Shown one piece after another: positions 9,843 to 38,050 of a DNA stretch of 64,000 nucleotides. The DNA is from a bacterium. GTDB lineage: Bacteria; Patescibacteriota; Doudnabacteria; UBA920. A program made the translations under genes and the position numbers. The notes under the pieces are model-generated. The model saw nothing but the letters and a program-made list of their open reading frames with translations, did no database searches and was not told the DNA's origin. Numbering within the stretch: the stretch's first letter is position 1; each line of letters starts with the position of its first letter. The DNA lies in the NCBI GenBank assembly GCA_016699995.1, contig CP064996.1, positions 528,584-592,583 of the forward strand. The letters are read 5' to 3'.

Positions 9843-10855
9843 ACCCTAACTATAACCTTATCCAAATCTATTCTAGGACTAAAATGAGGCATATCTGGAC
9901 CATAACCGATTCTAAAAAACATTTGAGGTCTCGTACTGATGCCTAAAGCTTGTTTAACCAATTTATAATTATCTCCTATTTCGATAGGTGCGCCCATTAT
10001 TCCAATTCTTAAACCTAAACCCTCCGCTTTTAAAGCTATTTTCTCGAAAGACATACCTGCCTTAACCCAAGCGCTTTCGTTATCTTCTACAGTACTGATA
10101 ACACCATACACTGGTGCATTCTTAAGCCACTCTTCGTGCATCTTGGCTTGAAAGTTTTGCAAGTTAAAATTTCTAATTGCAAATGGTAATAGGTAAGAAA
10201 TTAATTTTGGCACGCCGATCGTGTAGCCAGGCATACCGTCCCGATACTTAACAGAACTTGGCTTTACCCAAGCTGATAATTCGGTAGTAAACTTCTTATC
10301 TGCAAAAGCTTCTTTAACCGATTTAGAAACAATATCTCTAATGGACTGTTTCTGATTTTCTTGGCTCACAAAAGTTGAAACTATTCCCTCTAAGCACTCA
10401 GCAGCCATTTCATCCAATATGGATTGGTCTATTCGTCTGTCTTCAAGAGGCAGTCGGTTAGTTTTACGGTTTACCAGATTATCAAAAGCTTTCTGATCGA
10501 TTGAAGATGATGCTAGAGATTGATAATAAATTGTAAAAATAGTGTTCTTATCAAAATCGAAATTATACTCTGCATCATACTTCAAGCCTAAAGAATCTGA
10601 TCCGTGCAGTAAATTCTGGATCGCTGCGCCGATGCTCAGAAAAAGCTGGCGGTTATTTTCGTCGGAATAAGGTAATTTTCGATCGAAGTTTGCTTTGACA
10701 GTTATTGTTTTATCTCGAATCTCAAAAAGCCATGGTTGAGTATTATGGCTCGAGGGTGCTAAAGATGCTAATAGAACCAAAAAATCCAATCTTGCAGAAT
10801 CTGTTTGTAATTGGTCGTATTTTTCTATTTTTATTTCTGTACGAGGATTGTACAT
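9839..10855 (-). CDS. nitroreductase-family protein (tandem/extended nitroreductase fold), 338 aa
   Basis: SSHNTQPW (SxHNxQPW nitroreductase signature) near the N-terminus. Start overlaps the HK stop (ATGA-type coupling). Confidence 0.6.
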   Translation of the reverse strand: MYNPRTEIKIEKYDQLQTDSARLDFLVLLASLAPSSHNTQPWLFEIRDKTITVKANFDRKLPYSDENNRQLFLSIGAAIQNLLHGSDSLGLKYDAEYNFDFDKNTIFTIYYQSLASSSIDQKAFDNLVNRKTNRLPLEDRRIDQSILDEMAAECLEGIVSTFVSQENQKQSIRDIVSKSVKEAFADKKFTTELSAWVKPSSVKYRDGMPGYTIGVPKLISYLLPFAIRNFNLQNFQAKMHEEWLKNAPVYGVISTVEDNESAWVKAGMSFEKIALKAEGLGLRIGIMGAPIEIGDNYKLVKQALGISTRPQMFFRIGYGPDMPHFSPRIDLDKVIVRV

Positions 10856-10880
10856 TTAATTTATTATACCACAAAATTGG

Positions 10881-10904
10881 AAAAACCGGCCGGGCCGGTT
10901 TTGT
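10881..10904 (-). terminator. rho-independent terminator right after the ammonia-lyase remnant stop
   Basis: Minus strand: aaaaccggcccggccggttttt plus T-run. Confidence 0.6.
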
Positions 10905-11180
10905 TTAATTCTGAATTAAATCCTTTTTTAGTTTTTCAATCTCTTTGTATATCAAAGCGTCGTCAGCATAGAAAGGAACCTTTGATCTCACATATTCATA
11001 AGTTTCAGCATTGCCTTTACCAGCCTTTAATGGACTTCGCAATTCAACAGCCTGGGCAGCTGCCGCTAACTCGACTACCAAAATTTCAAATGCCATGTTT
11101 ATAATGTCTCTGCATTTTCGAGCAGCGGTCGTCGCGAAGCTTACGTAGTCTTCCTGGTTAGCAGAAGTAGGGATAGAAAC
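10905..11180 (-). pseudogene. hutH: C-terminal remnant (~90 codons) of an aromatic amino-acid (histidine/phenylalanine) ammonia-lyase; 5' part missing
   Basis: Minus-strand frame reads IPTSANQEDYVSFATTAARKCRDIINMAFEILVVELAAAAQAVELR..., matching the HAL/PAL C-terminus (SIPTSANQEDHVSMG..AARK; AIELLAAAQALD). The frame opens at a stop immediately adjacent to the res gene end at 11180. Confidence 0.6.
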
Positions 11181-13780
11181 TATTCAAGATCATCCAATTC
11201 TTCTAATAAATTTTCTAATTCACACCTAAATTTTTCTTGGCCTTTTAATATTCTCCCATCCTTCAAATACTCAAAAAATGTAGAATATCCTTCTGGACTC
11301 AAGAAATGAAAAATGTATTTTTGTTTAATTTTATTTTCCTCTAATTTATTGTTCAACCTCTCAAAATGTTCTTTCGCATATTTGTATTTTGCCTTGTTTT
11401 CATCGCTGTCGTCTTTGTCCGCTTTTATCTCAACAACAACAAAATAATCTACATTATCTTTTGTGATCTTGATAAAGAAGTCAGGATTAAACATCCCAAT
11501 CTTTTGGTGATTTGATGGTCTCCATGAATACTCAATGCCATAAAATCCACGATCCCGAGATTTTAACCACGCATCAATTTTCTCCGCAATATCCTTTTTG
11601 CAAAGGTTCTCGATGAATCTTCGTTCTGGTTCTGCGTTAGAAAAAACAACATTGACGGGGGTCTTAAACAAAAACTCATTTTGTTCCTTGTCGGCACTCT
11701 TGGGGAAACTCTCATCTTCTTTGAGCTTCTGCATTATGTTTCGTTGTTCATCGTCAAAGATCTCATTCTCCCAGTTGTTTGTGTAGAATAATGAATATCC
11801 ACGCCTAAAATTACCAACACCAGAACTTTCGCGGATGATATTTTTTGTAGAAATAACAACGGGTTCATTTACTTTTAATTGTGGCACAACTGTCTTGCTC
11901 TTTTTTCGCAGAAGTGTAGCAAAGGTATTGAGAATCTTATTGACATTTTTTTCGATGATTTGATCACCCTTAATACCAACGTTTTTCATGGATTTGAGAA
12001 TGATCTCTCGGATTTTTTCTTTCGGTGGGAGGTTATTTTGTGTGTACTGCTCTTCCCCGAGTTTCAATATTCTTCCTTCCCAATCTCTAATCTCAAATTC
12101 CTCATAGATTCTGTCCACCACTTCTTGAACAGTCCAAGTTCCGTATTCAATAACATAATTCTTCTCCCGAATATCTTTCGCAGTTATTGATTCATAAGAG
12201 GTGCCTTTTTCTGTTTGTATCACTTGAGAATCCAATTTGATACCTTCTTTTTCAATACGAGAATAATTAACAACTGGATTGGGTTTGTGTTCTACTTCCA
12301 CTTCTTCTTTGGTGTAATCAAGATTGTAAACATCAAAATGATATTTTGATCGGTCATCATTCTTAACAATCTCACTGATTATTCGAGTTTCGATTTCCAA
12401 CACTTCATCAACAAGAGCTTTTATACCTCTGCTCCATGCGTCATGGTTAAAAACAATGATTTTTGGTTGAGGAGTTGTATATGCCTCTGGTAAACGCAAA
12501 CCGCGCCCCAATACTTGTGCGATAAGAAGTTTAGAATTAAACGCCTTATCTTCCCATGGAACGATTTGAAAAACGTTTTTAACATCCCAACCTTCTGTAA
12601 GCATCGAGACAGAAACAATCCATTCAGTCGGATTTTCTCTATGATCAACTGTTTTCAATTTTGATAAATTGCCTTTATGATCCTTATGAGAAGTAACAAT
12701 CAAAACTTTTTCTTCAATACTTTCACGAGGTCGCCCCTCTCTCTTTTCAAGGAAATCAAGCAAATCTTCCATTAAACTTTTTGCCTTGGAAATATCTTTA
12801 GTGATCAAAATTGAAAGAGGTTTGATTTTTGGGTACTTATCAATATTCTCCTTGTGGTTTTGATATATTTTTTGGAACTTTTCATCAGTCCCCGAACTGT
12901 CATCTTTTTGTACATATTCAATATTCTTTACTATTCTATCTTCAATGGCTTCGCGCAAAGAATAGCGATAAATAACATCGTTAAAGTACTCGTTGTCATG
13001 ATACGCTGTACCAGTAAAACCAAGAATGTAACGAAAGTTGAAATCTAGATTTAATAAAAACTCCTTCCACCGCTTCAAACCTTGCGCTTCTGTTGTATTG
13101 CCAGATATTTTATTAAAAATATGGTGAGATTCATCATTAAGCACTAAAACGCGCTCGCCTTGTCTTTGGAAACTATCCTTAATCGATGACCCAGTTGTTT
13201 CATAAACTGCATGGATATTTTCAACACAAATACTTCCGTTTTTGACAGTGATATTTGCATCAACAATGCTTGGGTTTTTATAAAGAGCATTCGCTGGTAT
13301 CGATTTTTTGATTCGTGCATTCCCACTCAAATCCTCAAACTTCTCCAACAGTCCGTCTTCAATCGTCAAAGATGGGCAGAGTACCAAAACTTTATCTACC
13401 AAGCCTAACCCAAGCATGATTTGTGCCACACCATAAATTACATACGATTTTCCTGTACCAGTCGCTAAATCAATGTTTGCAAAAAGTTTATTAGGTAGCT
13501 GTAAATGGTGATGGTAATCGCTAAGGGTCGGATACTTTTCTTGCAGTTCGGGATTTTTATTGTAATTCTCATGTACTAAATCCTCAGTAGTAACATAACG
13601 CCCAGATGCAAGAAAGATAACCGCGTGTTTTATTGCTTCCTTTTGGTATTCTCTGTCTACACACAAGGTATCCAAAAAAGAATCCCATGCGCCCAAATCT
13701 AACTTTGTCGGATCATAGTTTTGATTCACTTTTAGAACCAAGTCTTTTTGTTTGTAAGTTTTAATATCCTGCATAGTCAT
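11180..13780 (-). CDS. res: Type III restriction endonuclease Res subunit (SF2 helicase + C-terminal PD-(D/E)xK nuclease), 866 aa
   Basis: Walker A LATGTGKSYVIYGV. DEAH-like VLNDESHHI. Helicase C motifs. C-terminal DFFIKITKDNVDYFVVVEIKADKDD nuclease-like motif. About 33% GC. Confidence 0.85.
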   Translation of the reverse strand: MTMQDIKTYKQKDLVLKVNQNYDPTKLDLGAWDSFLDTLCVDREYQKEAIKHAVIFLASGRYVTTEDLVHENYNKNPELQEKYPTLSDYHHHLQLPNKLFANIDLATGTGKSYVIYGVAQIMLGLGLVDKVLVLCPSLTIEDGLLEKFEDLSGNARIKKSIPANALYKNPSIVDANITVKNGSICVENIHAVYETTGSSIKDSFQRQGERVLVLNDESHHIFNKISGNTTEAQGLKRWKEFLLNLDFNFRYILGFTGTAYHDNEYFNDVIYRYSLREAIEDRIVKNIEYVQKDDSSGTDEKFQKIYQNHKENIDKYPKIKPLSILITKDISKAKSLMEDLLDFLEKREGRPRESIEEKVLIVTSHKDHKGNLSKLKTVDHRENPTEWIVSVSMLTEGWDVKNVFQIVPWEDKAFNSKLLIAQVLGRGLRLPEAYTTPQPKIIVFNHDAWSRGIKALVDEVLEIETRIISEIVKNDDRSKYHFDVYNLDYTKEEVEVEHKPNPVVNYSRIEKEGIKLDSQVIQTEKGTSYESITAKDIREKNYVIEYGTWTVQEVVDRIYEEFEIRDWEGRILKLGEEQYTQNNLPPKEKIREIILKSMKNVGIKGDQIIEKNVNKILNTFATLLRKKSKTVVPQLKVNEPVVISTKNIIRESSGVGNFRRGYSLFYTNNWENEIFDDEQRNIMQKLKEDESFPKSADKEQNEFLFKTPVNVVFSNAEPERRFIENLCKKDIAEKIDAWLKSRDRGFYGIEYSWRPSNHQKIGMFNPDFFIKITKDNVDYFVVVEIKADKDDSDENKAKYKYAKEHFERLNNKLEENKIKQKYIFHFLSPEGYSTFFEYLKDGRILKGQEKFRCELENLLEELDDLE

Positions 13781-13783
13781 ATT

Positions 13784-15748
13784 TTATACGGTGAAAATTT
13801 CAGCAAAGTCATTACCGTAAACATCAGTATAAATCACCATTATTTGCTTTCCCAATTCAGATTTTTTGAACGAAATTTCTAAACCCTTCTTCTCTATTTT
13901 CTTAAGTTCTGATTTTATATCCTCGTCATCGTCTTCTTTTTTATTTGCTTTCTTTGGCAAAAGTTCATCAGCAAAAAAAGCGTCATCCATTTCGAATGCT
14001 TTTCCATTGTAGCTTTTATCAACAAAGACAGCAGATAGGGTTTCGAAATTTTTCATCCCTTTCTCGTCTTGTGATTTGTCGGATTCAAGTTCTTGGCTAG
14101 TAAAACTCTTAATTAAGATTTTTACTCTATCCTTGTCTTTCTTTATTTCCGACTTTACTTCGGGATGTCGAATAAAGTGGAAACCAATCGCTTCTTCCAA
14201 ATCGTTCACATTCTTTTTACTTTGCGGTTGTCGCAATTTTAGGAATGGTGTTTTGTGGAGCTCTTTAATTACATGATATGGAATCTTGAGGAAGTAGTAT
14301 TTTACCCCGTCAATTTCATGGTAGTTAGAGAGAAAATCAACAAAGTTTGCTGGGGCAATAATATACACGCGACCACTTGCTTTCTTTCCGACAACTGCAT
14401 GTACATCTTTCAGATATTTTTCGTTAATTGTAGAGTTTTTGAAAGTTTGATAATCAAAAATCTTTACTGGGAAATCGCCTTTCATACCCTCAAATTCAAA
14501 CCCCGCAATTTTGTTTTTCTTGATTTCCACTTCAAAAAGCCCAGAGACAAACTCTTGATATTTTTGCCATTCCAAATCAAGTGCTCTTTTTAGATCATAG
14601 ATACCGAGTTGAGCAGTAACAAAACTTTTTGATTTCTTCCCGTACTTTTTATTTTGATCTTCTAAATCCTTTGAATTTTCAATTTGCAAAATGCGCTTTT
14701 GCATTGTGAAATAGGAAAGCTTACCTAGGTCACATGTAATCCATTTTCGTCCTAACTTTTCGGCTATATAAGCGGTTGCGCCAGAACCACCAAAAAAATC
14801 CATCACAATATCGCCTTCAACTGAAGCCGCTTTGATTATTCTCTCGATAAACTTATTTGGCTTCTCTGTCGGGTATCCAGTTCTTTCAACACCGTCTACT
14901 CTCAAACGAGCGGCGACTGAAAACTCCCACCAATCTTCTGGAACTTTTCCCTTTTTTCTTAATTCCTCCAAATCTTCCTCATCCCATCCTTCACCATCAT
15001 CAAAAGCAGTACGAAATGATTGATTAGGGTCTTTGTAAGGAACCCTGATCTGATCTTTGTTAAAAGTCCATTTATCCGATTTTGAGTACCAAAAAATCGT
15101 ATCGTGTTTCCTATTAAATTGCTTCATTTTAGGCGATCCTGGGCCTGTATATACCCAAATAATTTCATTCACAAGATGAAGTTCGCCGAATATCTCATCC
15201 AGTGCCAATTTTATGTAATGAGATTTTTTGTAATCGAGGTGGACAAATATACTTCCATCATCTGCCAATATTTCTTGTGCTAAAATAAGTCTACGTCGCA
15301 AAAACTCAACAAATTCTGCACCTTTCTTTTTGTCATTGTAAGCTTTTGCTCCTTCTTTGTTTAAGAAATCATCGGTAGTCGCAAAAGGTGGATCTATATA
15401 AATAAGCTTTACTTTTCCTTTCACCTTATCTTTTATCAGAGGGTCCTTATTTTCGTAAATGGTTTTAAGGAATTGCAGATTATCACCGAACACGATCATA
15501 TTTTTCCATCCATCCTTAAACGATTCGTATTCATTGCCATTGAAAACTTTTTCAGTTTGAAGAGGGACAGGGAAAACACCATCCTCATTTGCAAGCAAAT
15601 CTTCTTTTCGCATCTTCCCAGCATATACCAACTCATACTCTTTTTGAGTTGTTGGGAAAAGCAAGTATTTAAAATCGAATGGAATTTCTCTCCCGTCTTG
15701 TAGTGTTTTAACTAAAAATTCTGTATCAAATTTAGTGAGTTTTTTCAT
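13784..15748 (-). CDS. mod: Type III RM Mod subunit, N6-adenine (beta-class) DNA methyltransferase, 654 aa
   Basis: Motif IV IYIDPPFAT (DPPF/Y). Motif I VMDFFGGSGATAYIAEKLGRKWI. Immediately upstream of res, on the same strand. AT-rich. Confidence 0.85.
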   Translation of the reverse strand: MKKLTKFDTEFLVKTLQDGREIPFDFKYLLFPTTQKEYELVYAGKMRKEDLLANEDGVFPVPLQTEKVFNGNEYESFKDGWKNMIVFGDNLQFLKTIYENKDPLIKDKVKGKVKLIYIDPPFATTDDFLNKEGAKAYNDKKKGAEFVEFLRRRLILAQEILADDGSIFVHLDYKKSHYIKLALDEIFGELHLVNEIIWVYTGPGSPKMKQFNRKHDTIFWYSKSDKWTFNKDQIRVPYKDPNQSFRTAFDDGEGWDEEDLEELRKKGKVPEDWWEFSVAARLRVDGVERTGYPTEKPNKFIERIIKAASVEGDIVMDFFGGSGATAYIAEKLGRKWITCDLGKLSYFTMQKRILQIENSKDLEDQNKKYGKKSKSFVTAQLGIYDLKRALDLEWQKYQEFVSGLFEVEIKKNKIAGFEFEGMKGDFPVKIFDYQTFKNSTINEKYLKDVHAVVGKKASGRVYIIAPANFVDFLSNYHEIDGVKYYFLKIPYHVIKELHKTPFLKLRQPQSKKNVNDLEEAIGFHFIRHPEVKSEIKKDKDRVKILIKSFTSQELESDKSQDEKGMKNFETLSAVFVDKSYNGKAFEMDDAFFADELLPKKANKKEDDDEDIKSELKKIEKKGLEISFKKSELGKQIMVIYTDVYGNDFAEIFTV

Positions 15749-16279
15749 ATAAATTCTATTTGAGTCCCAAAAAAGTTAATCGAGATAAGTGAAACCATTT
15801 TACCATAAATCACACCTTAAATAAAGGGTTTTAGAGTGACCAAACCATCATTCGGCGTCATTAATCCGTTGCTCGCAAATGCAGAACATACTAAACTGAC
15901 ACCTGACGAGTTTAAAACAACTAAGAAAGTGAGATGCTGTTCTCTGCTCCCCCTAAATCGACAGAACAAGATGAACCGGAAGCTTTTTCTATCTATTCCG
16001 AAATAAGGGAAATGATGAATATGACATATAGGAAAAGCCTACATACCGAGAGATTGTAGAGAATTCATTCAGCAAAGAACTCCCGTGCCATTGAATATTA
16101 TCTGTTTCGCAGGAAGAAGCCCCAAAAACAGCTCGGCAACCTTGGGATTACTTTAGCTTCCACACACCGAATCCTTCTTTTAATTTATGATAATAGCACG
16201 TATATTAATACAGTGAAATTTGGCTCTCACGAGGAATAGCTTGTACAAACCATTTTTAATATAATTTTAATTTAATTTC

Positions 16280-21938: not shown

Positions 21939-24900
21939 TTATTTTTGTTTGCTTGCCTTAACCTCTACGGTCGCATATTTGGGCAATAACACGATGGTTA
22001 ATAATCCCAAAATAGTGAATACAATAGAAGCTGGGGTTCCGGTACGAGGCAATGTTGTAGCGCCTAATACAGAACCAGTAGGAGCGGGAGTTTCTTGGTC
22101 GCTAGGGGTATTAGTAGAATCTCCCAGGACTCGTCCTGTTGGTGGAGGTGGAGTTTGGCCACCGCCGCCTCCGCCCGAGCTTCCGCCAGAGCCGCCATTG
22201 CCGCCGTTGCCGCCGCGGCCATTGTCGAAGTTACCGAAGTTGACCCCTACAGCATCCCCTGCTGAAGTAATTAGCAAAGGTCCTGCTGCAGCATGAGCAG
22301 TTTTAATGAATAGTGAAGCAAAGAATCCTTGGCCAGAGTCGGTAAATAACTCGTTACAGTTATTAACTCCGCCCACGGCTACGTGATATGAATCAGAATC
22401 CACGTCTGGTTCTGTAACGATCCAGCCGCCCGGAGTGCTTTCTGTTACTAAATAGCAACCGGCTACTAGACCAGTAAACTGATAATTACCATTTTCGTCC
22501 GAGGTAGTACTGTCGGTAAAGGCTTCTTCTTCACCTAATTTTTCGATATTAATCTGCCAGCCTGGCAAACCAGACTCGCCTTCGTCTTTTGTGTTGTTAG
22601 CATTGGAATCTTCGTAAACTATTCCGCTAATTTTGTATCCGGAACCGCCGTTGCCGCCACCATTACAATCAAAGGTAACATCGTCCAGCTTGTAAATGAG
22701 CCCCGTTGGGTTATTAGGCTGGTCAAAAGCGTCGTTCTTTACTACAAATTTTAAGGTGTGAGTGCCAGCGGTTAACGCTAACGCGCCAGTCGTAGAAACT
22801 GTAGTAAAACCGCTGTTTGGAGCTGTACTGCCAACCAAAACATCGTCTAGATAAGCTTCTACAGAGTTGTCACCGGCGAAGCTCAATACAGGAGAATTAA
22901 TATTAATTGCCCCCGCAGGAATGGTAAAGGTATGAGAGAATAATCGGTAAGATTCTACGCCGCCGTTATAGCCGGCCGCGCCGCCAAATGTCGGCTGAGT
23001 AGAATCATTGCTTACGTAGCTGGCTCCAGCAATGGCCGAACCGCTCCAAGCTCCAGGATATCCGGTAGAATCCGCTGATTGTGCAAATCCCCAGCTTCCC
23101 AATGGATAATTGCCAATGTTAGTTGGAATTGGAGGTACAGAACCCTCACGAACACCCCAAGACAGAGTTACGCCTGCGGCGCTGGCTACAGAAATCGGCT
23201 CATCTACGCATGGGGCAATCTTTTCTATGTTGTACGCAATACAGTAAATATTCTCTGGGGTTGCTCCGTTAAGATTGATGAATTCTAGGTTGTCTCCGTT
23301 GAAGGCGTCGTCGTAACATCGCAGTGCAGCAAAATCATAACCGCCTTGAGTAACTTCGCTCACCCAGAAGTTGCCATTCTGAATGCCAGCCTGCAATTCT
23401 GCAGACAAAGCCGAGCCCGGACCATACGCAGCGGTGGTATAAGTACCATTAACGGTAGCTACGGTTTGGTTATCGTCATTTTGGTCTTGATCCGTAGACA
23501 GCAAGAACTGCCAGTTATGAGCCATGGCACAGCCATCCGGAATTTCCTCAGGATCGACGAAGCCGCCTACCAAAGGACTAGGTGAAAATGCGCCATTTGC
23601 ATAGTTATTGAAATAGACATAATTGCCGCCGGTAGCATCGTACGCGTCGCTCATTGCATTTCCTGCAACATCGCTAAAGCTGTCGCAAACTACTTTGATC
23701 AAATGCAGGTTTGGAACAACCGGTTCCGGCTGATTGCAGATTTCGTCTACTACACAAGCGTTAACTAGAGTGAAGCCAGGATTGCCGTCGAGCAATGGAT
23801 TCGGGCCTTCGACTGGACCATTCACAACTACGATATCGCCTTCCCCATCTTCATTCATCCAGCCATCCTGCATAATCTCACCCAAGCTGTATGTGCCGTA
23901 AGGAACATCATTCAAAGTTACACAGCCGTCTTCTTCTGTTACGCCAGAATAGACTTCGTAAATCTTCACAGTTAGCGGGCCGACGTTGTCGCCGAACCAT
24001 GCGGAGCTGCTATTATCAGCATCATTCTGGTTGGCAAAATCATAAACACGGAATTTAGCGGTAGAGCCGCTGCCGGTCATCAGATAGTTATAGGTATGAG
24101 ATGTATTGTAAGGGCCCCATTCTACAAAGCCGTCATCAACCTGAAGCTCAAGCAATTCATCTTGATACCCGCCCTGAGGAGCGTCTAAAACTGTGCTCCA
24201 ACCGTCCGGAGTAGTAAACTTGGCATCTACAGTTTCGAAACTGCGATTGCCCCACGTGCCACTGGCAACGGCCAAGTATTGCTTGCCGTTTTGCAATGTT
24301 GCAGAAGTAGTAGCCCCTAAAGGATTATTAGAGTTTACAGAAACAGTTTCTACTAGCTTGCCTTTTAGGAATACAGTCCAGCCAGATAATGGTTGATCAT
24401 TAGCATCGTTTACCTTACAAACAGTTACTTGAGATTCACAGCCAGTGTCACACTTGTTTACGAGGGTAAAGGTATCGCTGACACCGTCTACATTAGCGGT
24501 TTGGCCTTGGCCAGAAACGTTGGACCAGCCCTGCTGCATAACTTCGTCAACAGTGTAAGTTCCAAAAGGTACGTCTTTGAGGGTAATACAGCCGTTGTCC
24601 CCTGTTGTTCCTTTTAGCACTTTATAAATATCCACAGTTAAGCTGCCGGAGTTATCGGAATAGTTATCGTCCAAAATTCGGAAGTCCATTGCATCAGGAC
24701 CGCCAAGAGTACGGAAAGTAGAGTATTGGTGTGCCGGGTTAAAAGTAGAGCCCCAATCGGTGAACCCTTGATCAATCTGAATACCCAGCCAGCCAGTGTG
24801 AGGGTTTGGAAAATCGTTCACTCTCACCCATGGAGCAAAAGCCCCACCGTAAACAGGATCAGAAGGCAAGCGCTTAGAATACGCTGCATCAGAAGTAGAC

Positions 24901-26837
24901 GCGGCAGGATCGCCAGGGCGATATACGTAAGTACCGCTAGCTTCTACAACATATTGGCCAGCAGGCAAAGTTCCTGCGGTAGAATAGTCCGCGCCATCAG
25001 GATATACAGTCACTGTTTCAATTTTTGGACCCTTCAAATAAACTTCCCAGCCGGACAACGGATTCTGGTTGTTATCTAACTTACAAATAGTAACGTCGGA
25101 CAGACATTCCTGCTTAACGCTAACATCATCTACGAACGCTCCAAAAGAATCGCCCACCCCTTGGTCGCTGATTTCCAAACGAGTGACGCCGCTTGTAGCA
25201 GTAAATGTGTAAACATGTTCGGTCCAGACAGTATTAAGATTGCCAGTACCATCTTCTATAATTGTATCTAGGACAACTGCACCGGCCTTAACCTGGGTAA
25301 CATTCTGAGAAGAATTCTGCCCTGGACGAGGAGAAGTCCATAGTTTAACGGTATACTTGCCGCCGGGAACAGTGATTAAGTCTTGGAAAAGTTTAACAGA
25401 TCCATTTTCACCGTTAGTCGGGTCAGACGGGCCGCCCCAATCAGAATCTAGCTCAGTATGTTGAGAACCACTCTTAGGGTCCCAACCATTTACACCGCGA
25501 TGCAATTCGGCCTTTGCAATTGCAGGAGCACCGGTTGGATTAACCCAGTCTACACTCCAGCCTAGGCCAGGTGTACCAGAATCACGAACATCCCAGCTAT
25601 TAGAGAGTACAGGAGCTTCGAATCCACCATTAGCTACTAGCTCTGCACTACAAGGCTGTGGTGTTTTTAATTTATTAATAACTGTGTGAGTACATGGTTC
25701 TTGAGAATCTACGTCACAAACAACGTCAACACTTCCAACTGTTTGATCATCAACTTCCCAACCTGCTGGTAAGCCAGTTTCTGTAACGGTAATTTCTTGA
25801 CCATTATTAACGATTATTGCGTCGTGATTACAAACTAAAGTATCACCTTCATACTTACATGTAGCAGGTGCATTGCCGCCGTAGTTTACTGTAATGGTAA
25901 TATCATCTTTATTATCCGGAGCAGGAATTGGATTTCCTTGAGCATCCTGCCAAATTTTTTCAATTTCAATATCTACTGGAGTAGGTGTAGGAACAGGTTC
26001 AAAGTCATAGGTTGTAATCAATGAAGCAGTAGAAACCACCACTTTATCCAAATAACCATCTAATCCAGCGTCAGAAGCGGAAGTATCGCCAACATTCAAA
26101 GCAAACATGCGGATATTTGATCCTGAGCTAAAATTATTCATATCTGCCGGCACAGAAGGGCAAGTGTGAGGCGAAGGGTCTCCACCAGCTCTAGTTGTAA
26201 CTGGATAAGACTGTGTGGGATCAAATGTTACAGTTGTAAAACTACCTGTAGAACCAAAAGTTGGTACAACATTATATCTACAATCATAAAACTTGGTTGG
26301 GCTAGACGAACCAAAGTTTGCATAAACGTTCATGTAGAATTGCTCTTCATCAGTATTGTCACCGCCGCTGCCAATTTTAAAGTCATAGCTAATGCTATTT
26401 ATATCTACTATTAACTTGTTAATAAAATTTTCAGCGACCATCTTGTCTGCTGGTGTAGCTCCAATAGGTAAGACATTTAAGCTCCCCGACCCAATACTTG
26501 CCGCGTTTGTATTAAATGCAAAAGGAGTATCTGTGGAAGTATCACGGTTAAACATCCAGCCAGGTTGGTTTTCTCCAGCAGCTGTGTCGCCAGTAATAAT
26601 TATAGTATTACTTGGAATTGCTGGTGTATCTAAACTCTCACAACCACCCTGAGGCACAGGGTATACATCACCATGATTAATATGGGTCTGCAATGAATTT
26701 GAGTTTACACTTAAGCTATTGTATCCATTGCCAGTTTTGTGGCAAACATCAACAAAAGTTGTTGCCGCATAAGTGGTGGAGAGAGGTGCAAGCACTGTGC
26801 TTACCAAAGCAAAGCGCGATACGCCTTGATATGCCAA
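21939..26837 (-). CDS. giant (1632 aa) secreted cell-surface protein with LPXTG-type (LPRTG) C-terminal sorting signal, repeated SpaA/SdrD-B/prealbumin-like Ig domains, DUF642-like jelly-roll region and Gly-rich linker
   Basis: Signal peptide MAYQGVSRFALVSTVLAPLSTTYAA. Internal repeats (NPLSGWEVYLKG / QPLSGWTVFLKG; GTYTVDEVMQQGW / GTYSLGEIMQDGW). SdrD-B-like block SGIVYEDSNANNTKDEGESGLPGW...NGNYQFTGL. C-terminal LPRTG, then a hydrophobic stretch, then a KYATVEVKASKQK basic tail. Confidence 0.85.
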   Translation of the reverse strand: MAYQGVSRFALVSTVLAPLSTTYAATTFVDVCHKTGNGYNSLSVNSNSLQTHINHGDVYPVPQGGCESLDTPAIPSNTIIITGDTAAGENQPGWMFNRDTSTDTPFAFNTNAASIGSGSLNVLPIGATPADKMVAENFINKLIVDINSISYDFKIGSGGDNTDEEQFYMNVYANFGSSSPTKFYDCRYNVVPTFGSTGSFTTVTFDPTQSYPVTTRAGGDPSPHTCPSVPADMNNFSSGSNIRMFALNVGDTSASDAGLDGYLDKVVVSTASLITTYDFEPVPTPTPVDIEIEKIWQDAQGNPIPAPDNKDDITITVNYGGNAPATCKYEGDTLVCNHDAIIVNNGQEITVTETGLPAGWEVDDQTVGSVDVVCDVDSQEPCTHTVINKLKTPQPCSAELVANGGFEAPVLSNSWDVRDSGTPGLGWSVDWVNPTGAPAIAKAELHRGVNGWDPKSGSQHTELDSDWGGPSDPTNGENGSVKLFQDLITVPGGKYTVKLWTSPRPGQNSSQNVTQVKAGAVVLDTIIEDGTGNLNTVWTEHVYTFTATSGVTRLEISDQGVGDSFGAFVDDVSVKQECLSDVTICKLDNNQNPLSGWEVYLKGPKIETVTVYPDGADYSTAGTLPAGQYVVEASGTYVYRPGDPAASTSDAAYSKRLPSDPVYGGAFAPWVRVNDFPNPHTGWLGIQIDQGFTDWGSTFNPAHQYSTFRTLGGPDAMDFRILDDNYSDNSGSLTVDIYKVLKGTTGDNGCITLKDVPFGTYTVDEVMQQGWSNVSGQGQTANVDGVSDTFTLVNKCDTGCESQVTVCKVNDANDQPLSGWTVFLKGKLVETVSVNSNNPLGATTSATLQNGKQYLAVASGTWGNRSFETVDAKFTTPDGWSTVLDAPQGGYQDELLELQVDDGFVEWGPYNTSHTYNYLMTGSGSTAKFRVYDFANQNDADNSSSAWFGDNVGPLTVKIYEVYSGVTEEDGCVTLNDVPYGTYSLGEIMQDGWMNEDGEGDIVVVNGPVEGPNPLLDGNPGFTLVNACVVDEICNQPEPVVPNLHLIKVVCDSFSDVAGNAMSDAYDATGGNYVYFNNYANGAFSPSPLVGGFVDPEEIPDGCAMAHNWQFLLSTDQDQNDDNQTVATVNGTYTTAAYGPGSALSAELQAGIQNGNFWVSEVTQGGYDFAALRCYDDAFNGDNLEFINLNGATPENIYCIAYNIEKIAPCVDEPISVASAAGVTLSWGVREGSVPPIPTNIGNYPLGSWGFAQSADSTGYPGAWSGSAIAGASYVSNDSTQPTFGGAAGYNGGVESYRLFSHTFTIPAGAININSPVLSFAGDNSVEAYLDDVLVGSTAPNSGFTTVSTTGALALTAGTHTLKFVVKNDAFDQPNNPTGLIYKLDDVTFDCNGGGNGGSGYKISGIVYEDSNANNTKDEGESGLPGWQINIEKLGEEEAFTDSTTSDENGNYQFTGLVAGCYLVTESTPGGWIVTEPDVDSDSYHVAVGGVNNCNELFTDSGQGFFASLFIKTAHAAAGPLLITSAGDAVGVNFGNFDNGRGGNGGNGGSGGSSGGGGGGQTPPPPTGRVLGDSTNTPSDQETPAPTGSVLGATTLPRTGTPASIVFTILGLLTIVLLPKYATVEVKASKQK

Positions 26838-28634: not shown

Positions 28635-28675
28635 ATAAAAAAAGGCAGTTCTAATCGAACTGCCTTGTATTAATT
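28635..28675. terminator. hairpin aaggcagttc-taatc-gaactgcctt between convergent genes (bidirectional terminator)
   Basis: 10-bp perfect stem flanked by A/T runs. Confidence 0.55.
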
Positions 28676-28695: not shown

Positions 28696-29217
28696 CTAGT
28701 CGCCCTTTTCGCCTGCGTCTTTGGCGAACTCAACGCTGTCTCCGCCGTAAACGACATAGTCATTGTTGACTTCCTGGCCATTAACGTAGGCTTTAGCCGC
28801 CGGAGAAATACTCAAAGCATCTCCCAGCTTGCCGCGCAGAGCGCGAATGGTCATGCCGCTCACGTTAAGCGACTTCTGGTGAGCGCCGCTGACAACTTGG
28901 ACAGCGGTGGCACCCGTGGCTTCGGCCAAACCGGTAGACTCGAACGCGATGCGGTCGCCGGCCTGGATCGTGTAATTATCACCGATCTGCTCGCCCGAAA
29001 CAAACGCTTTGTGGTGCTTGCCCAGGCTGAGGCTGGCGCCGTACTGGTCGCGAATGAAAAAGATCGATTTACCGACTGCGTCGGACTCAGGGATGTTGAT
29101 CACATTCCCGTCACACGACACCTCGATAACGTTATCCCTCGTTTCATCAAACAGATCCGCAAACATGTTACCGCCTGCTTCCGTAGTTTCCATATCAAAT
29201 TCGTTTTCATTTGCCAT
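28696..29217 (-). CDS. tandem ThiS/MoaD-like beta-grasp (ubiquitin-like) protein, two ~65-aa Ubl repeats after a ~30-aa leader, 173 aa
   Basis: Repeats ...ASLSLGKHHKAFVSGEQIGDNYTIQAGDRIAFESTG and ...DALSISPAAKAYVNGQEVNNDYVVYGGDSVEFAKDAG match the ThiS consensus (vavNGe.v.....l.dGD.vei). Preferred start ATG at 29217 (MANENEF) with GGAGG ~15 nt upstream, 8 nt after the E1 stop. The track ORF extends to 29343 but overlaps E1. Confidence 0.6.
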   Translation of the reverse strand: MANENEFDMETTEAGGNMFADLFDETRDNVIEVSCDGNVINIPESDAVGKSIFFIRDQYGASLSLGKHHKAFVSGEQIGDNYTIQAGDRIAFESTGLAEATGATAVQVVSGAHQKSLNVSGMTIRALRGKLGDALSISPAAKAYVNGQEVNNDYVVYGGDSVEFAKDAGEKGD

Positions 29218-29224
29218 AGTTCTT

Positions 29225-29968
29225 TTATAGTTCCTCCATACTTTTTGACGAGACCGCTCTTTGAGCAAGCCCCTTGATACTACAATATACAATATCCGGG
29301 AAAAAAGGCTTCTCGGTATAGTACACATTGTAGAAAACTTCACCCATTAGTGCCGCCACCCGCCAGTTGGTGAAAATCAGTTGGGGGGCTCCTGCGACAG
29401 CCAGTTCTTCACAACCGGCTTCGCCTGGATTCTTATCCTTTGGATCACCGATCGAAGGCGAGCTTTCGACTAGGGATTTAGTGAAATTTTCACCATCTTT
29501 CCTAATGTACAGCTGTACGCTTCCGTCGTCAAACTCATTTCCGCCGCAGATCATCACCGCATCGGCGAGATCTTCGAACCGTTCGGAAAAGAGCTTTCGT
29601 GAAGCATTATTATCCACTCCCATGAACACCAGATCATTTTCCCGGACATGCCGGTTGATGTTAGCCTTGGTTACGTACTCCATGACTGTCGATATTCTGA
29701 GATTGGTAAAATGCGCGACTTGATCTCTCAGAAGCTCGGCCTTATAGCCAAGCCCGTTGAAATTTTGTCTGGTAAAATTCCGTTCTTCTACTTTGTCGCC
29801 ATCGATGAGGACGATCTCCGTCTTTTCTCCACCTTCCTTATGGGCAAAGTGCAGAAATCGGCATAGGGGCGGGACAAGCCAGCCCCCAATGCCGCCACAT
29901 CCAACCACGACAATGCGGTTGAATTTATTGATCATTAGTTCCCTCCTTAACTGCCGTTTCAGTTGCAA
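29225..29968 (-). CDS. minimal E1-like (ThiF/MoeB superfamily) adenylyltransferase, 247 aa
   Basis: NRIVVVGCGGIGGWLVPPL...IVLIDGDKVEERNFTRQNF is the E1 nucleotide-binding signature. No rhodanese or Cys-rich C-terminal domain. 5' end overlaps JAB gene by ~44 nt. Confidence 0.75.
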   Translation of the reverse strand: MQLKRQLRRELMINKFNRIVVVGCGGIGGWLVPPLCRFLHFAHKEGGEKTEIVLIDGDKVEERNFTRQNFNGLGYKAELLRDQVAHFTNLRISTVMEYVTKANINRHVRENDLVFMGVDNNASRKLFSERFEDLADAVMICGGNEFDDGSVQLYIRKDGENFTKSLVESSPSIGDPKDKNPGEAGCEELAVAGAPQLIFTNWRVAALMGEVFYNVYYTEKPFFPDIVYCSIKGLAQRAVSSKSMEEL

Positions 29969-31667
29969 CCTCTACTATCACGGCATCCGCTTCCGGAGCC
30001 GTTGGAGCAACAATGACCGGCTCCAAAGGTGTCGGAACAGGCACATAGGGTGTTGTCAAACTTAACGGGTTTACAGCACTGTGCGGTATCTTCGAATTGC
30101 CGCTGACCGAAACTTCAGCCTTCGCCGGAGCATTTGCTTCGGGCAGGGCTGGAGGTTTCGGAGGCGGTCCTTCCCCTGGGAGGTACGGTGTCGTTCTCGA
30201 ACCGCTTCTCGAAAAGGCTCCGGGATTTTGATTCATCCCGGATTTTTGGGCCATCGGTTTATAAGGTGGCCTAAAAAAGGATCTTTCTCTCACCATATCG
30301 AACCAGGATGTTGGGAAGTTGATCTGTTTTGCAGAAGTTATTTGCTCCGGCAAAATCAAATCATATTCCTTTCCAGTTCTAGACACGCCGCCAAACCAGC
30401 CGCCGTCATTGCTGCTTTCGGATACATACCCCTTAACCGACGGCCTCGGATTGACATCCTTGACAGGTTCCGGTTTTGGGGCAGCACCTCCGATCGGAAC
30501 AATAGGCACGGTATATTTCCACAACCGATGCCATGCGCGATAGGTATAGTAGCGACAAACGCCAAGCTGATGGTCTTCTCCGATCTTGTTCTGAGCTACT
30601 TCCGGTCCATCGAGTTCCTGCCATGTCCTCCACTTAAGGGAGATACACAGCATGATAAAGAATGAAATCGGCAAAAACAGCCAGAACACCAACCGGTCTT
30701 CGAACTTCACTCGTTCCGGGTACTTAAGCGTCGGTCGGTAAGACACGCTTCTTCGTACCTGGTCTGCGATCGCCGGACTTGCTTTTCCATGACCAGGCAC
30801 TACCGGGGTTGGATCCCCAGGAATAACCTGGATCTTTGTTGCGATTACAGCAGGCGGTCCGTCTAACGGCTGCTCTTGCGGCTGCTCCACAGCCACAGGC
30901 TGGGTTTCGACAGCCGGTTCCGGAGTCTCGACCGGTTTTGGCTCTTCCGCCTCCTTGGCAGCTTTTTTGATGTTATAAAGAAGCTTGCCTAAGGTATTGC
31001 CTTGATAAGCACTGCCGTAACTTGTAAGGACAAGCCCGTCGATCACATCTTCCGGTTTAACTTTAAACCGGCTTGCGTTGACCGACAGTTCGGAGCTGAC
31101 GGAGAATCCGCCCCAATCCATATTCCCCAAAGTTACGTGCAGACCGTCGAAGTTGATCTCATCGTGAGTATCGGTACCAGAATGATAGGCCGCGAAACCT
31201 GCGTGGGAATGGATAGAACCAACCAGCAGGTAGCCCGGTTTGCGGGGCGGCGGCTTGTAAGAGATGCCTCCGCCCGAAACATCCTGTTCCGGACATCCGA
31301 AGAAATACTTTTGGTCGTGCAGCGAGTAATAGATTAAGACCATCGCTTCGGCCTTGCGGGCTTCATACACCATCTTAAAAAAGTAAGCGGTATGAATCAT
31401 CTCCTTCAGCGGCAGTTTAGGCAAAAGCCATTCTGCCGATTCGCGATGAGGCGCAAGGTCACCAATTGCCTTCACTTTCACCGTGGCGTCCAGCACGCTA
31501 GTTCTCTTATGAACGAACGGGCCGTTGGAAGCCAAGATGTAGTGATAATCAGGCGGCTGAAATCCTGGTGCAAATAGCGGAGCCCCCGTCCTTTTGATAA
31601 AGACCGGGATATCCCCATTATTGTTTGCAGTCGGCACAGCCGGAGTAACGTTTATCTTTTCTGTCAT
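29925..31667 (-). CDS. JAB/MPN+ (JAMM) metallopeptidase domain protein with Pro-rich linker, single TM helix and large C-terminal region, 580 aa
   Basis: JAMM motif GSIHSHAGFAAYHSGTDTHDE (HxHx7Sx2D) with upstream Glu. PEPAVETQPVAVEQPQEQP linker. TM LVFWLFLPISFFIMLCISL. Start overlaps upstream gene stop (ATGA). Confidence 0.8.
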   Translation of the reverse strand: MTEKINVTPAVPTANNNGDIPVFIKRTGAPLFAPGFQPPDYHYILASNGPFVHKRTSVLDATVKVKAIGDLAPHRESAEWLLPKLPLKEMIHTAYFFKMVYEARKAEAMVLIYYSLHDQKYFFGCPEQDVSGGGISYKPPPRKPGYLLVGSIHSHAGFAAYHSGTDTHDEINFDGLHVTLGNMDWGGFSVSSELSVNASRFKVKPEDVIDGLVLTSYGSAYQGNTLGKLLYNIKKAAKEAEEPKPVETPEPAVETQPVAVEQPQEQPLDGPPAVIATKIQVIPGDPTPVVPGHGKASPAIADQVRRSVSYRPTLKYPERVKFEDRLVFWLFLPISFFIMLCISLKWRTWQELDGPEVAQNKIGEDHQLGVCRYYTYRAWHRLWKYTVPIVPIGGAAPKPEPVKDVNPRPSVKGYVSESSNDGGWFGGVSRTGKEYDLILPEQITSAKQINFPTSWFDMVRERSFFRPPYKPMAQKSGMNQNPGAFSRSGSRTTPYLPGEGPPPKPPALPEANAPAKAEVSVSGNSKIPHSAVNPLSLTTPYVPVPTPLEPVIVAPTAPEADAVIVEVATETAVKEGTNDQ

Positions 31668-33271
31668 GCCTTCAATTTTCTCCTTAACATATTCTCAGAC
31701 AGCGTGAGCGGCGTAGCTTGTAGCCTTATAGGCACTTCTTCGCTTAGCTCCTCAAAATGATTTTGAACCGTTTCGTGAAAGCGCTCCACGATAGTATCGT
31801 GAAACCTGGCCACTAGCGCCGGATTCAAAGAGTCGGGGAATGCCTGGAAAAAATCTTCTCCAAACATCGACCACGCAGCCTTAATCTGCCTCCGCAAGTG
31901 TTCTTCTAATTTCTGAACAGTTACTTTGCCAAACTTGTTCTTTGTAGTCAGGTTCTCTTTGAGCTTTTTAGCGATTCGCTTGCCAACTCCGAGGCGGAAT
32001 TCCTCGCCAAAAGCGCGGATCACCTCTTCGGTGTTGCGGTCAACAGCTTTGCCGCCTTTGGTGGCTGCAATGCCGCTGCCGTAGTGATTGATGTAGTCCT
32101 CAAGCGTATAGCCCTTTCGCCAGGTTTCTGGCTCCAAGGCGAACGTATGATCTCGGATCGACAGGTCTTCCCACTTTTTAAAGCCTACTGCCGCGCCGCC
32201 GGAACCAGTATTGATTCCCGCCGGGAAGTAGACGTTGCCAGTCCAATGGCTATTAAACCGGCTTTCCCAAAAATGGCTGATGCCTCTCTGGATTTCGCGG
32301 TAAACATCCCGATTGGAACTACCTGGCAACTGCGTGCAGATTCTGTACATGTTGGCCGCGCTATCAAAGTTGGGTAGATTCGGCAGGTACAGCTGGTCGG
32401 TTCTTGACTCGATAGGTTTTAAACTATAGGCCATGGTCATGTTTTGGATCTGACCGCCAATCAACCGTATAAAGAAGACCGTGTAAGGGAAAGCCAGACG
32501 CATACGCGTCATTCCCCTTTCGGTTCGGCCCGCGATGGTGAAGTAGCTCTGATCGATTACAATCGTCCGAACGCGAGGTTCTTCTTCCACAACAACCAAA
32601 GCCTGGTCGCCGCTAGCAAAGAAGTACTTCACATTTTTCGGAAACACGTTTTGCGTGCCAATGGCAGCGTACTGTTTGGAAACGTCGATAATGTTTTTGA
32701 CGACTTTATCAAACGCTCCCTTCCACAAGCTCTCGATCTCCTGGACCAATTCGTCTTCCAGATAACCTGTAACTTCGTCTTTATAACTTGCCAATGCCTG
32801 GTCAACGATTTCTTGCGCCGTAGCCTTAACCGCCTTAAAGTCGGTGAACTCTTTTTCCATGGCCATCTTCGCTGCTACTTCCCTTGCTTTAGGGGCGAGG
32901 GACTTAACAATATGAGAGGCCAAGTCCATTGCAACATGGTTATCCATTTCTGTAAGCCCAGATAGCTGCCTCGAAGCGATCTTTAAACCAAGTTCGCGGA
33001 ATGCTCGAGTTTTGCTATCACCCAAAATCATGCCTTTGAACATGTCAAAGCTGACCTTTGCGATAGTAACTTCTGAATATATAGGTGTGGGCAAAAGCCT
33101 CCACCGGACATCAACACGACCTTTTATTAAGCTGGCAGAGCCATCTTCGTCCATCATAATGCGAGCGGGACGGTCGATCATGTCGAGATATTCAGGAGCA
33201 ACCTGCTCTACAAACCATTGCTTGATAACGCCGCTAAGCGTGTCATCAAAAGATTCGTACATTGCTGACAT
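31664..33271 (-). CDS. uncharacterised 535-aa protein, first gene of the Ubl operon; central segment resembles an E2/UBC-like active-site arrangement (hypothesis)
   Basis: AFPYTVFFIRL...LYLPNLPNFDSAANMYRICTQLPG resembles the E2 pattern (fP..Pf...F....HPN....G.ICL.iL), with LPN in place of HPN and one candidate Cys. The rest is unassigned. Confidence 0.4.
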   Translation of the reverse strand: MSAMYESFDDTLSGVIKQWFVEQVAPEYLDMIDRPARIMMDEDGSASLIKGRVDVRWRLLPTPIYSEVTIAKVSFDMFKGMILGDSKTRAFRELGLKIASRQLSGLTEMDNHVAMDLASHIVKSLAPKAREVAAKMAMEKEFTDFKAVKATAQEIVDQALASYKDEVTGYLEDELVQEIESLWKGAFDKVVKNIIDVSKQYAAIGTQNVFPKNVKYFFASGDQALVVVEEEPRVRTIVIDQSYFTIAGRTERGMTRMRLAFPYTVFFIRLIGGQIQNMTMAYSLKPIESRTDQLYLPNLPNFDSAANMYRICTQLPGSSNRDVYREIQRGISHFWESRFNSHWTGNVYFPAGINTGSGGAAVGFKKWEDLSIRDHTFALEPETWRKGYTLEDYINHYGSGIAATKGGKAVDRNTEEVIRAFGEEFRLGVGKRIAKKLKENLTTKNKFGKVTVQKLEEHLRRQIKAAWSMFGEDFFQAFPDSLNPALVARFHDTIVERFHETVQNHFEELSEEVPIRLQATPLTLSENMLRRKLKA

Positions 33272-33382
33272 AATATCCTCCTAAATGTATGAAAAGTACC
33301 CTTTGCCGGTAATTCGGCAAAGACTTGTAAGAGTAACATATGAAGCAGAAAAAGTCAATTCCCTTTCAACTAAGAATAAAAA

Positions 33383-33412
33383 CAAAAAATCCCTTAAATA
33401 TAAGGGATTTTT
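33383..33412 (-). terminator. rho-independent terminator of the rplM-rpsI transcription unit
   Basis: aaaatcccttatatttaagggatttttt on the minus strand, 15 nt after the rpsI stop. Confidence 0.65.
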
Positions 33413-37822: not shown

Positions 37823-38050
37823 CTATTTTAGGCGGCGCGTAATGCGTCCCTTAGAAAGATCGTAGGGCGTAACCTCGAGCAACACCTTATCGCCTGGCAG
37901 AACGCGAATGCGATGCAAGCGCATTTTGCCGGATAAGTGGCCGATAATTACTTGACCAGAGTCCAATTGAACGCGAAAAACAGTGTTAGGTAAACTCTCA
38001 ATGACTTTACCCTCGAGTTCTATGGTCTGATTTTGTTCGGAACTTCCCAA
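37823..38050 (-). CDS. infA: translation initiation factor IF-1
   Basis: [47 protein letters not shown] is the canonical IF-1 OB-fold. Confidence 0.9.

Follow-up and report, generated by a model that had tools for sequence, protein, structure and literature searches.

A predicted ubiquitin-like conjugation cassette in a Doudnabacteria genome, with its closest relatives in large phages

Background

Bioinformatic surveys have recorded, since 2006, mobile-element operons that combine a ubiquitin-conjugating enzyme (E2), a JAB peptidase, a ubiquitin-activating enzyme (E1) and a ubiquitin-like protein (Ubl) (Iyer et al. 2006, PMC1779556). Three lineages, namely Cap2/3 of the cyclic-oligonucleotide-based antiphage signalling systems (CBASS), Bil and Bub, were recently shown to conjugate proteins, all of them acting for the host in its conflict with phages. 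In these systems JAB peptidases expose a Gly residue, and the E1 and E2 form the conjugates (PMC10557695, PMC11601596, PMC10097602). In Bil, the JAB removes a short tail that follows the conserved Gly, there is no ubiquitin ligase (E3), and the choice of target has been ascribed to the E2 (PMC10557695, PMC11601596). The Ubls of Type I Bil contain two beta-grasp domains, and those of Type II Bil and of Bub contain one to three (PMC10557695, PMC11601596). Bub is set apart by its Ser/Tyr oxyester chemistry and its DUF6527 protease (PMC11601596). We analyse here four minus-strand genes at positions 28696-33271 of a 64,000-nucleotide stretch of DNA, hereafter the window, from a bacterium of the Doudnabacteria (Patescibacteriota; contig CP064996.1, positions 528,584 to 592,583), and compare them with these and other described systems.

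Two families of mobile-element systems resemble these genes. The ParB-related, ThiF-related cassette (PRTRC; TIGR03734-03741) is found on plasmids and on integrative and conjugative elements, and presumably corresponds to class 6d of the 2006 catalogue, to which the lineage described here possibly belongs as well. The other is built around Prok-E2_D (PF14460), a member of the E2/UBC superfamily. A search of a literature library turned up no experimental work on PRTRC, on class 6d or on phage-borne versions. We consider it likely that the four genes of the window make up a self-contained Ubl conjugation and deconjugation cassette, with an E2 of the Prok-E2_D type, an E1 and a JAB nearest to those of PRTRC, and its closest relatives in large phages.

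Results

The four genes lie on the minus strand exactly where a first-pass annotation, made from the sequence of the window, had placed them, and form one operon between two terminator-like hairpins. In order of transcription they code for an E2-like protein of 535 amino acids (31664-33271), a JAB/JAMM peptidase of 580 amino acids (29925-31667), an E1 of 236 amino acids (29225-29935) and a Ubl of 173 amino acids (28696-29217). For the last two, the start codons were corrected within longer open reading frames (29225-29968 and 28696-29343). The most likely start of the E1 is the ATG at 29935, because it has a strong ribosome-binding site (AAGGAGG, 6 nucleotides upstream), gives a protein of the same length as NCBI protein P0002 and agrees with the homologues in its N-terminus; the overlap between the JAB and E1 genes is therefore 11 nucleotides and not about 44 as first reported. 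The ATGA overlap that joins the E2-like and JAB genes, preceded by AAGGAG, stands as annotated, while the gap before the Ubl gene is 7 nucleotides, from the E1 stop to the ATG at 29217, rather than 8. On its upstream side the operon does follow a terminator-like hairpin of the rplM-rpsI operon, at 33385-33412 (minus strand), with a 12-bp stem and then a T-run, just 3' of the rpsI stop codon. A strong bidirectional intrinsic terminator at 28642-28666, with a 10-bp stem, five G-C pairs and T-runs on both strands, closes the operon. Its guanine-plus-cytosine (G+C) content, 0.495-0.508, is slightly higher than that of the flanks (about 0.45).

The 535-amino-acid protein consists of an N-terminal alpha/beta domain, long helices, a core of the Prok-E2_D type and a C-terminal helical bundle. 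A word-indexed (k-mer) homology search with this protein recovered only the protein itself; an exhaustive phmmer run against 1.84 billion cluster representatives brought up 467 relatives, counted as clusters at 50% identity. What these relatives have in common is a core at about residues 205-400 (32072-32659), which comprises a beta-meander, an LPNLPN loop with N301, Cys312 (codon 32336-32338) and a helix with W335. The first-pass annotation had guessed that an E2 fold might lie at residues 230-330, and the conserved core, with its PN motif at residues 300-301, does cover that region. In alignments of 42 and 150 E2-like sequences P262 never varies, and at least 90% of the sequences keep each of N301, C312 and W335; the consensus of the core reads LAFPY...PNLPN(I/F)....(V/I)C.G...FW.S.FN. 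Pfam Prok-E2_D is matched by 14 of the 42 homologues (E<0.01), and PRTRC_B, weakly, by 3. One of the homologues, P0136, which aligns with the 535-amino-acid protein at E=2.7e-10 (phmmer), scores 27.2 bits with Prok-E2_D against a gathering score of 25, and the match spans the Cys region.

With hhalign, the core alignment matched a canonical Prok-E2_D protein (from a Leptolyngbya plasmid, 93 bits, encoded beside JAB and ThiF genes) at P=2.9e-4 over 106 columns, with LPN...C.G superposed. Against human UBE2D2, UBC9 and UBE2N only the active-site stretch aligned, PN...C falling on HPN...C (P=0.0026). An AlphaFold2 model made with the 150-sequence alignment reached a predicted local distance difference test score (pLDDT) of 79 overall and 85-97 in the core, compared with 40 from a single-sequence input. 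The order of elements in the modelled core is a long helix, a beta-meander, a loop with the PN motif and Cys312, and helices. Foldseek found no match to the model in the PDB at E<=0.001, and a structure search of BFVD matched only uncharacterised phage proteins. We therefore call the protein E2-like on profile and motif evidence, without a structural match.

The second protein matches NCBIfam PRTRC_A at 1.6e-8 over profile positions 28-186 of 192 (34.4 bits, with a cut-off of 101.8) and, below threshold, Pfam Prok-JAB at 5.5e-4 (20.2 bits, cut-off 25). Its JAB-N and JAMM catalytic domains span residues 1-235 (30963-31667). The HxHx7Sx2D motif recognised in the first-pass annotation is intact, as H153-S-H155...S163..D166, and together with E107 these residues of the zinc site are all kept in an alignment of 76 JAB sequences. 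Residues 236-580 form a Pro/Glu-rich extension without a homologue among phage proteins. Within it, residues 324-342 (30642-30698; DRLVFWLFLPISFFIMLCI) are hydrophobic, with a Kyte-Doolittle mean of 1.96, and may be a membrane anchor. This 19-residue segment is unique to the window copy, with no counterpart in 75 phage homologues or in the two from cellular gene contexts (L110 and L111), and the idea of a membrane-tethered JAB, put forward as part of the system, has to be abandoned as a trait of the family. A different C-terminal motif, Y[DE][LI]x[LV]P[ED]...P..W, is common to the three cellular-context JABs and is not found in the phage JABs.

The third protein is, as annotated, a minimal ThiF-like E1. 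It scores 47.4 bits with Pfam ThiF (cut-off 28.1; 1.7e-12), as expected of the ThiF/MoeB/E1 superfamily, and carries GCGGIGG, DGDKVEERNFTRQ and D108-N109. Its best NCBIfam match is PRTRC_ThiF, nearly full-length, at 5e-15 (55.4 bits, with a cut-off of 144.75); ThiF and MoeB models are matched at 1e-9 to 1e-5. An alignment with 12 relatives keeps GxGG, DGD..E..N..R, K-A, DN...R and C175 invariant, including G12, G14 and G15 of the Rossmann motif, the Arg finger R56 and D108. Cys175 (codon 29411-29413) lies 67 residues past the Mg-binding Asp, which we take, by comparison with ThiF and MoeB, to be where a crossover-loop catalytic Cys should lie, and is thus the candidate catalytic Cys of the E1. 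PADLOC gave generic matches only for this protein, with "E1-E2" models up to 1.8e-10 over the E1 part and BilD at E=0.011 over 92 residues, and no match for the JAB or the Ubl. Searches of PDB sequences with all four proteins gave nothing meaningful, and PHROGs gave nothing informative.

The Ubl has an acidic N-terminal tail, two beta-grasp repeats (28927-29136 and 28702-28908) and a C-terminus AGEKG-D, in which the codon of Gly172 is 28702-28704 and a single residue, Asp173, follows. The two repeats align to each other at E=2e-9, in keeping with the tandem architecture proposed earlier. Models of ThiS, TGS and Ub-Mut7C match weakly, on the C-terminal repeat; among 38 members of the Ubl family TGS is matched by 11 and ThiS by 7. 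PRTRC_C is matched by none of the 38, and the Ubl is neither PRTRC_C nor PRTRC_E. The best-conserved part of the protein is the family C-terminus, ...GD.LEF(L/I)KPAG(K/R)KG, and K171 and G172 are invariant in the 38 sequences. Altogether 71 distinct Ubls were compared. In 48 the Gly is the last residue, in 16 a single residue (often Cys) follows it and in 6 the tail is longer; the window Ubl falls into the one-extra-residue class. We thus regard it as a beta-grasp modifier, by predicted fold, with a conserved C-terminal Gly.

Most phage Ubls are built differently. They are about 155 amino acids long, with an N-terminal Rho_N/SAP-type helix-hairpin, a linker and a single beta-grasp, and Pfam Rho_N is matched by 22 of the 38 family members. 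Only the second beta-grasp of the window Ubl bears the AG.KG end, and the first is probably a non-reactive adaptor that takes the place of the phage Rho_N head. One locus (L068, 8707-9666) encodes a Ubl in which a full Rho_N-linker-beta-grasp unit occurs twice, head to tail, with KPAGRKG as the end of both copies; it would be a polyubiquitin-like precursor in need of processing by the JAB.

Phage-like metagenome contigs carry relatives of the E1 (30-45% identity) and, directly upstream of these, a JAB gene. A scan of IMG/VR returned 360 contigs that encode the E1 clade; they are up to 572 kb long, which points to large phages as the carriers. Scans with hidden Markov models were then run over 86 loci, 6 from metagenomes and 80 from viral contigs (80 of the 360). 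A JAB gene was detected in 85, a Ubl gene in 81 and an E2-like gene in 76, and in 85 of the 86 the JAB homologue immediately precedes the E1. The complete set of four, on one strand and in the order E2-like, JAB, E1, Ubl, recurs in 68 of the 80 viral loci, so that the four-gene module is conserved far beyond chance, and the co-occurrence on which the first-pass annotation had made its case depend is borne out. Nine viral loci have no E2-like gene; in eight of these the contig runs out on the upstream side. The phage E2-like protein is usually about 850 amino acids long (535-880 in the family), and the phage JAB 300-620 with variable tails. The family is predominantly phage-encoded, a point that the first-pass annotation had missed.

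In 68 loci a gene for the beta-prime subunit of multisubunit RNA polymerase lies about 3 kb downstream of the cassette. RNA polymerase genes stand at about +3 to +8 kb of the E1 in loci L007-L086 (for example L025, 11496-14201, and L083, 10287-13286), and a beta gene follows in 12 loci. In the window, too, the cassette stands beside an RNA polymerase gene, in rpoA-rplQ-rplM-rpsI; this proximity may be a coincidence or may reflect mere relatedness of the phages. Other neighbours in the phage loci are SbcC-like, radical-SAM and WYL_2 proteins. At least 11 phage loci (L011, L012, L013 at 9280-10191, L014, L015, L017, L020, L024, L033, L072 and L082) have a second, longer ThiF paralogue of about 280-320 amino acids downstream of the Ubl gene, about 0.6-2.2 kb past the main E1. 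This paralogue, which has no counterpart in the window, is matched by Pfam ThiF (4.5e-11) along the N-terminal half alone, and might be an inactive-adenylation-domain partner that gives a heterodimeric E1.

Only distant versions were found among GenBank phages and plasmids, in Bacillus jumbo phages (for example vB_BauM_KLEB27-3, gp194-gp196) and, in Bacillus and its relatives, on plasmids larger than 200 kb; those of the jumbo phages are annotated as "PRTRC_A domain" and ThiF, with a Prok-E2_D-like gene upstream. A scan of 185,579 species genomes with the E1 gave only partial matches to distant ThiF proteins, 25-35% identical, the source genome not being among those matched. Two loci with cellular gene context (L110 and L111) repeat the gene set and gene order of the window cassette, and L111 resembles it further in its two-beta-grasp Ubl and Pro-rich JAB tail. 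In a neighbour-joining tree the window E1 pairs with that of L001, outside the main phage clade, a placement compatible with transfer in either direction.

Discussion

PRTRC shares with the window operon a separate small ThiF-type E1, a JAB with an extra N-terminal domain, a non-canonical E2 bearing a Cys and a small Ubl that has a Gly at its C-terminus, and is borne, like the window lineage, on mobile elements. However, the window proteins match neither PRTRC_B nor PRTRC_C, and ParB and the PRTRC D and E partners are absent from an operon of four genes only, whereas the window lineage has E2-like proteins of 535-880 amino acids with large helical additions, the gene order E2-JAB-E1-Ubl, and mainly phages as its carriers. 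Because every PRTRC equivalog cut-off was failed, the Ubl is unlike PRTRC_C, and ParB and the D and E partners are absent, the cassette is, judged by its sequence, a relative of PRTRC and not a member. The Prok-E2_D family has the same kind of active site, ...LPN(I/V)....(I/V)C.G...F..S.F, and its canonical member from the Leptolyngbya plasmid shares the E2-JAB-ThiF arrangement, along with a Ubl that has a GTKG motif. The window protein differs in not reaching the Prok-E2_D model and in having extra strands in its core, inside a protein that is two to three times longer. On the plasmid of Leptolyngbya sp. BL0902 (L088), a gene of 138 amino acids (3234-3650) begins with about 57 Ubl-like residues that end in ARKGTKG, after which comes an 80-residue tail; it stands two genes upstream of a strong Prok-E2_D gene, which JAB and ThiF genes follow. 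A G.KG end may thus be common to the wider Prok-E2_D family.

The first-pass annotation had likened the module to Bil and CBASS. Its preference for conjugation and deconjugation over a cofactor pathway holds up; the likeness to Bil and CBASS does not, in view of a single-domain ThiF of 236 amino acids with generic PADLOC matches. BilABCD does have the same four functions (Ubl, E2, JAB deubiquitinase and E1), a multi-beta-grasp Ubl, a conserved Gly with a short tail and no E3. Yet BilD is an E1 of about 450 amino acids with an inactive and an active adenylation domain and a CYS domain, while the window E1 is a single domain with a crossover-loop Cys; the window proteins have no BilA, BilB or BilC matches in PADLOC, the E2 lineage differs, and Bil is a host-encoded defence, whereas the window clade is mostly phage-encoded. 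On account of the E1 architecture and the negative PADLOC result, we do not assign the cassette to Bil. Type II CBASS Cap2/Cap3 and Bub (class 6E) share with it the homodimeric adenylation chemistry of ThiF type, a JAB partner and a mobile-element context. Cap2, however, is an E2-E1 fusion that acts on a CD-NTase, whereas the window has separate E2-like and E1 proteins and no CD-NTase or effector gene in the operon, and for these reasons the cassette is not CBASS. Nor is it Bub, since the E1 and the E2-like protein each have a conserved Cys and DUF6527 is lacking. The claim that no described system matches it needs the same kind of division: the lineage is experimentally unstudied, but it is not without matches, PRTRC_ThiF, PRTRC_A and Prok-E2_D/PRTRC_B being its best family matches. 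The tandem Ubl, too, loses its standing as a distinguishing feature, given that the Ubls of Bil and Bub are already multi-beta-grasp (PMC10557695, PMC11601596).

The cassette is real, intact and very probably functional. Its catalytic signatures are intact in all four proteins and kept family-wide, and translational coupling and terminators delimit the operon. Our preferred reading, that of a self-contained conjugation and deconjugation cassette, has several points to answer. The 535-amino-acid protein itself has no match to an E2 model of Pfam or NCBIfam and none in PADLOC; PRTRC_ThiF (TIGR03736) and PRTRC_A (TIGR03735), although the best NCBIfam matches of the E1 and the JAB, are both matched at scores far below their cut-offs; and the nearest tandem-beta-grasp relative of the Ubl (L111, 4878-5360) ends in ...APDEKADVK, without a Gly at the expected site. 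These findings weigh against the reading, and the last would suggest that the L111 Ubl may be degenerate or may have a different reactive end.

A sulfur-carrier pathway of the ThiS/MoaD/CysO type, serving cofactor or peptide biosynthesis, would need the E1 only to adenylate and thiocarboxylate the Ubl and the JAB merely to mature it. Such a pathway might be suggested by the matches of the E1 to ThiF and MoeB models (1e-9 to 1e-5), by the weakly ThiS-like C-terminal beta-grasp and by the known pairing of a JAB with a sulfur carrier in CysO/Mec+. We nonetheless consider it very improbable. The usual partners, rhodanese, desulfurase, ThiG, MoaE and CysM, are absent from the operon and from the genes adjoining it (rpsI and a LOG-family gene), as had been observed before, and the best E1 match is PRTRC_ThiF rather than a biosynthetic equivalog. 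The carriers of those pathways end in GG, whereas the window Ubl ends in AGEKG-D and its family in AG(K/R)KG. Moreover, an E2-like protein with a conserved Cys accompanies the module (76 of 86 loci), and in phages the module stands beside transcription and replication genes.

If the proteins do form a conjugation system, it could serve the host or the phage. It is conceivable, though in our view rather unlikely, that the cassette is an anti-phage defence like Bil, in which the host would conjugate the Ubl to an incoming phage protein, blocking assembly or infectivity, and the JAB would mature or regulate the Ubl. The component list, with its multi-beta-grasp Ubl and one-residue tail past the Gly, is that of BilABCD (PMC10557695); the cassette is a compact, horizontally mobile island of slightly raised G+C (0.50 against about 0.45); stand-alone copies lie on other cellular contigs; and a Type III-like restriction-modification island stands about 13 kb away. 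Against this, besides the PADLOC results and an E1 architecture unlike that of BilD, no defence genes or CapW/CapH-type regulators adjoin the operon, and the clade is overwhelmingly phage-encoded, with 360 IMG/VR contigs set against partial matches of 25-35% in 185,579 species genomes. We are equally doubtful that the system is an offensive or self-serving module of phages, for host takeover, counter-defence or control of their own replication or transcription, of which the bacterial copy would be a captured remnant, possibly decaying or repurposed. The closest relatives do lie within large phage genomes, beside RNA polymerase beta and beta-prime, SbcC-like and radical-SAM genes, most phage Ubls (22 of 38) have a Rho_N/SAP head of the nucleic-acid-binding kind, and a distant version occurs in Bacillus jumbo phages. 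But the window copy, with intact catalytic residues, ribosome-binding sites and terminator, is hardly in decay, no other phage gene lies near it, and the branch of its E1 and L001 is placed outside the main phage clade and not nested in it.

The cycle that a conjugation cassette of this kind would run can be drawn by analogy with Bil, Bub and CBASS; the elements seen in the sequence are the JAMM site, the adenylation site, the pair of Cys residues and the Gly with its tail. The JAMM peptidase would cut off Asp173 behind Gly172 of the Ubl. A homodimeric ThiF-type E1 would then adenylate Gly172 and hold the Ubl as a thioester on Cys175, from which it would be handed to Cys312 of the E2-like protein, the PN loop with Asn301 acting in the role of the HPN motif. 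There being no E3, the E2-like protein probably uses its large helical and N-terminal domains to select a target, to a lysine of which the Ubl would be joined, and the JAB may also be able to remove the tag. The cassette has probably been exchanged horizontally with phages, and its most likely role would be in phage-host conflict. A broader proposal, which we offer tentatively and as short of probable, is that large phages, and a few small-genome bacteria that exchange genes with them, carry a complete ubiquitination machinery that forms a lineage apart from CBASS-Cap2, Bil and Bub. The tag would usually be headed by Rho_N/SAP, the giant E2 would be ligase and substrate selector in one, and the system would rewire host or viral proteins; the window copy would be its host-side form, in which the tag has a double beta-grasp and the protease is possibly membrane-anchored. 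Since the phage cassettes are linked to RNA polymerase genes, the targets under this proposal may lie in the transcription or nucleoid machinery.

Neither the kind of system, mobile-element operons of E2, JAB, E1 and Ubl, nor the tandem Ubl is new. The novelty lies in a lineage that is large and essentially phage-borne and in its distinctive Ubl, with an AG.KG end and a Rho_N head; the window copy is a variant of it, with a double beta-grasp Ubl and a possible membrane anchor. Next to CBASS Cap2/3, Bil and Bub it is a fourth lineage, related to PRTRC/Prok-E2_D, with 467 E2-like clusters and 360 viral contigs. If it does conjugate proteins, then phages deploy ubiquitin-like tagging of their own, and four proteins, with an E1 of 236 amino acids and no E3, would offer a minimal system in which to study how an E2 chooses its target. 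The ...AG(K/R)KG end and the one-residue tail yield directly testable predictions.

The operon leader, 33272-33384 (minus strand), contains a ribosome-binding site, AGGAGG, at 33277-33282 before the ATG at 33271, and a second hairpin at 33300-33323. This 9-bp, G+C-rich hairpin lies 18 nucleotides before the AGGAGG site and might serve in regulation or as a weak terminator. The operon is flanked by rpsI on one side, with rpoA-rplQ-rplM-rpsI among the neighbours of the cassette in the window, and on the other by the LOG-family gene and an open reading frame of 168 amino acids without a family match. No tRNA genes were found in the window. When the window genes were compared with the phage loci, only IF-1 had homologues there beyond the four genes, and the locus is therefore a stand-alone island of 4.6 kb and not a prophage. 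The IF-1 gene (37823-38050, minus strand) has homologues, 53% identical, in three phage loci (for example L081, 3437-3661), so that some of these large phages encode an IF-1 of their own.

A low-GC island at 10000-16000 (0.36 compared with about 0.45), about 13 kb from the operon, contains minus-strand open reading frames at 13784-15748 and 11180-13780. Its 654-amino-acid product matches N6-adenine DNA methyltransferases (M.RsrI, 5e-23; EcoP15I Mod, 1e-15), and the adjoining frame of 866 amino acids has no PDB sequence match; the island is probably a restriction-modification island of Type III-like character. As would fit, taken with the 943-kb contig, a small-genome and Gram-positive-like host, possibly one of the Patescibacteria, the window encodes at 21939-26837 (minus strand) a repetitive surface protein of 1632 amino acids, with a C-terminal LPRTG and a hydrophobic tail that resemble a sortase sorting signal.

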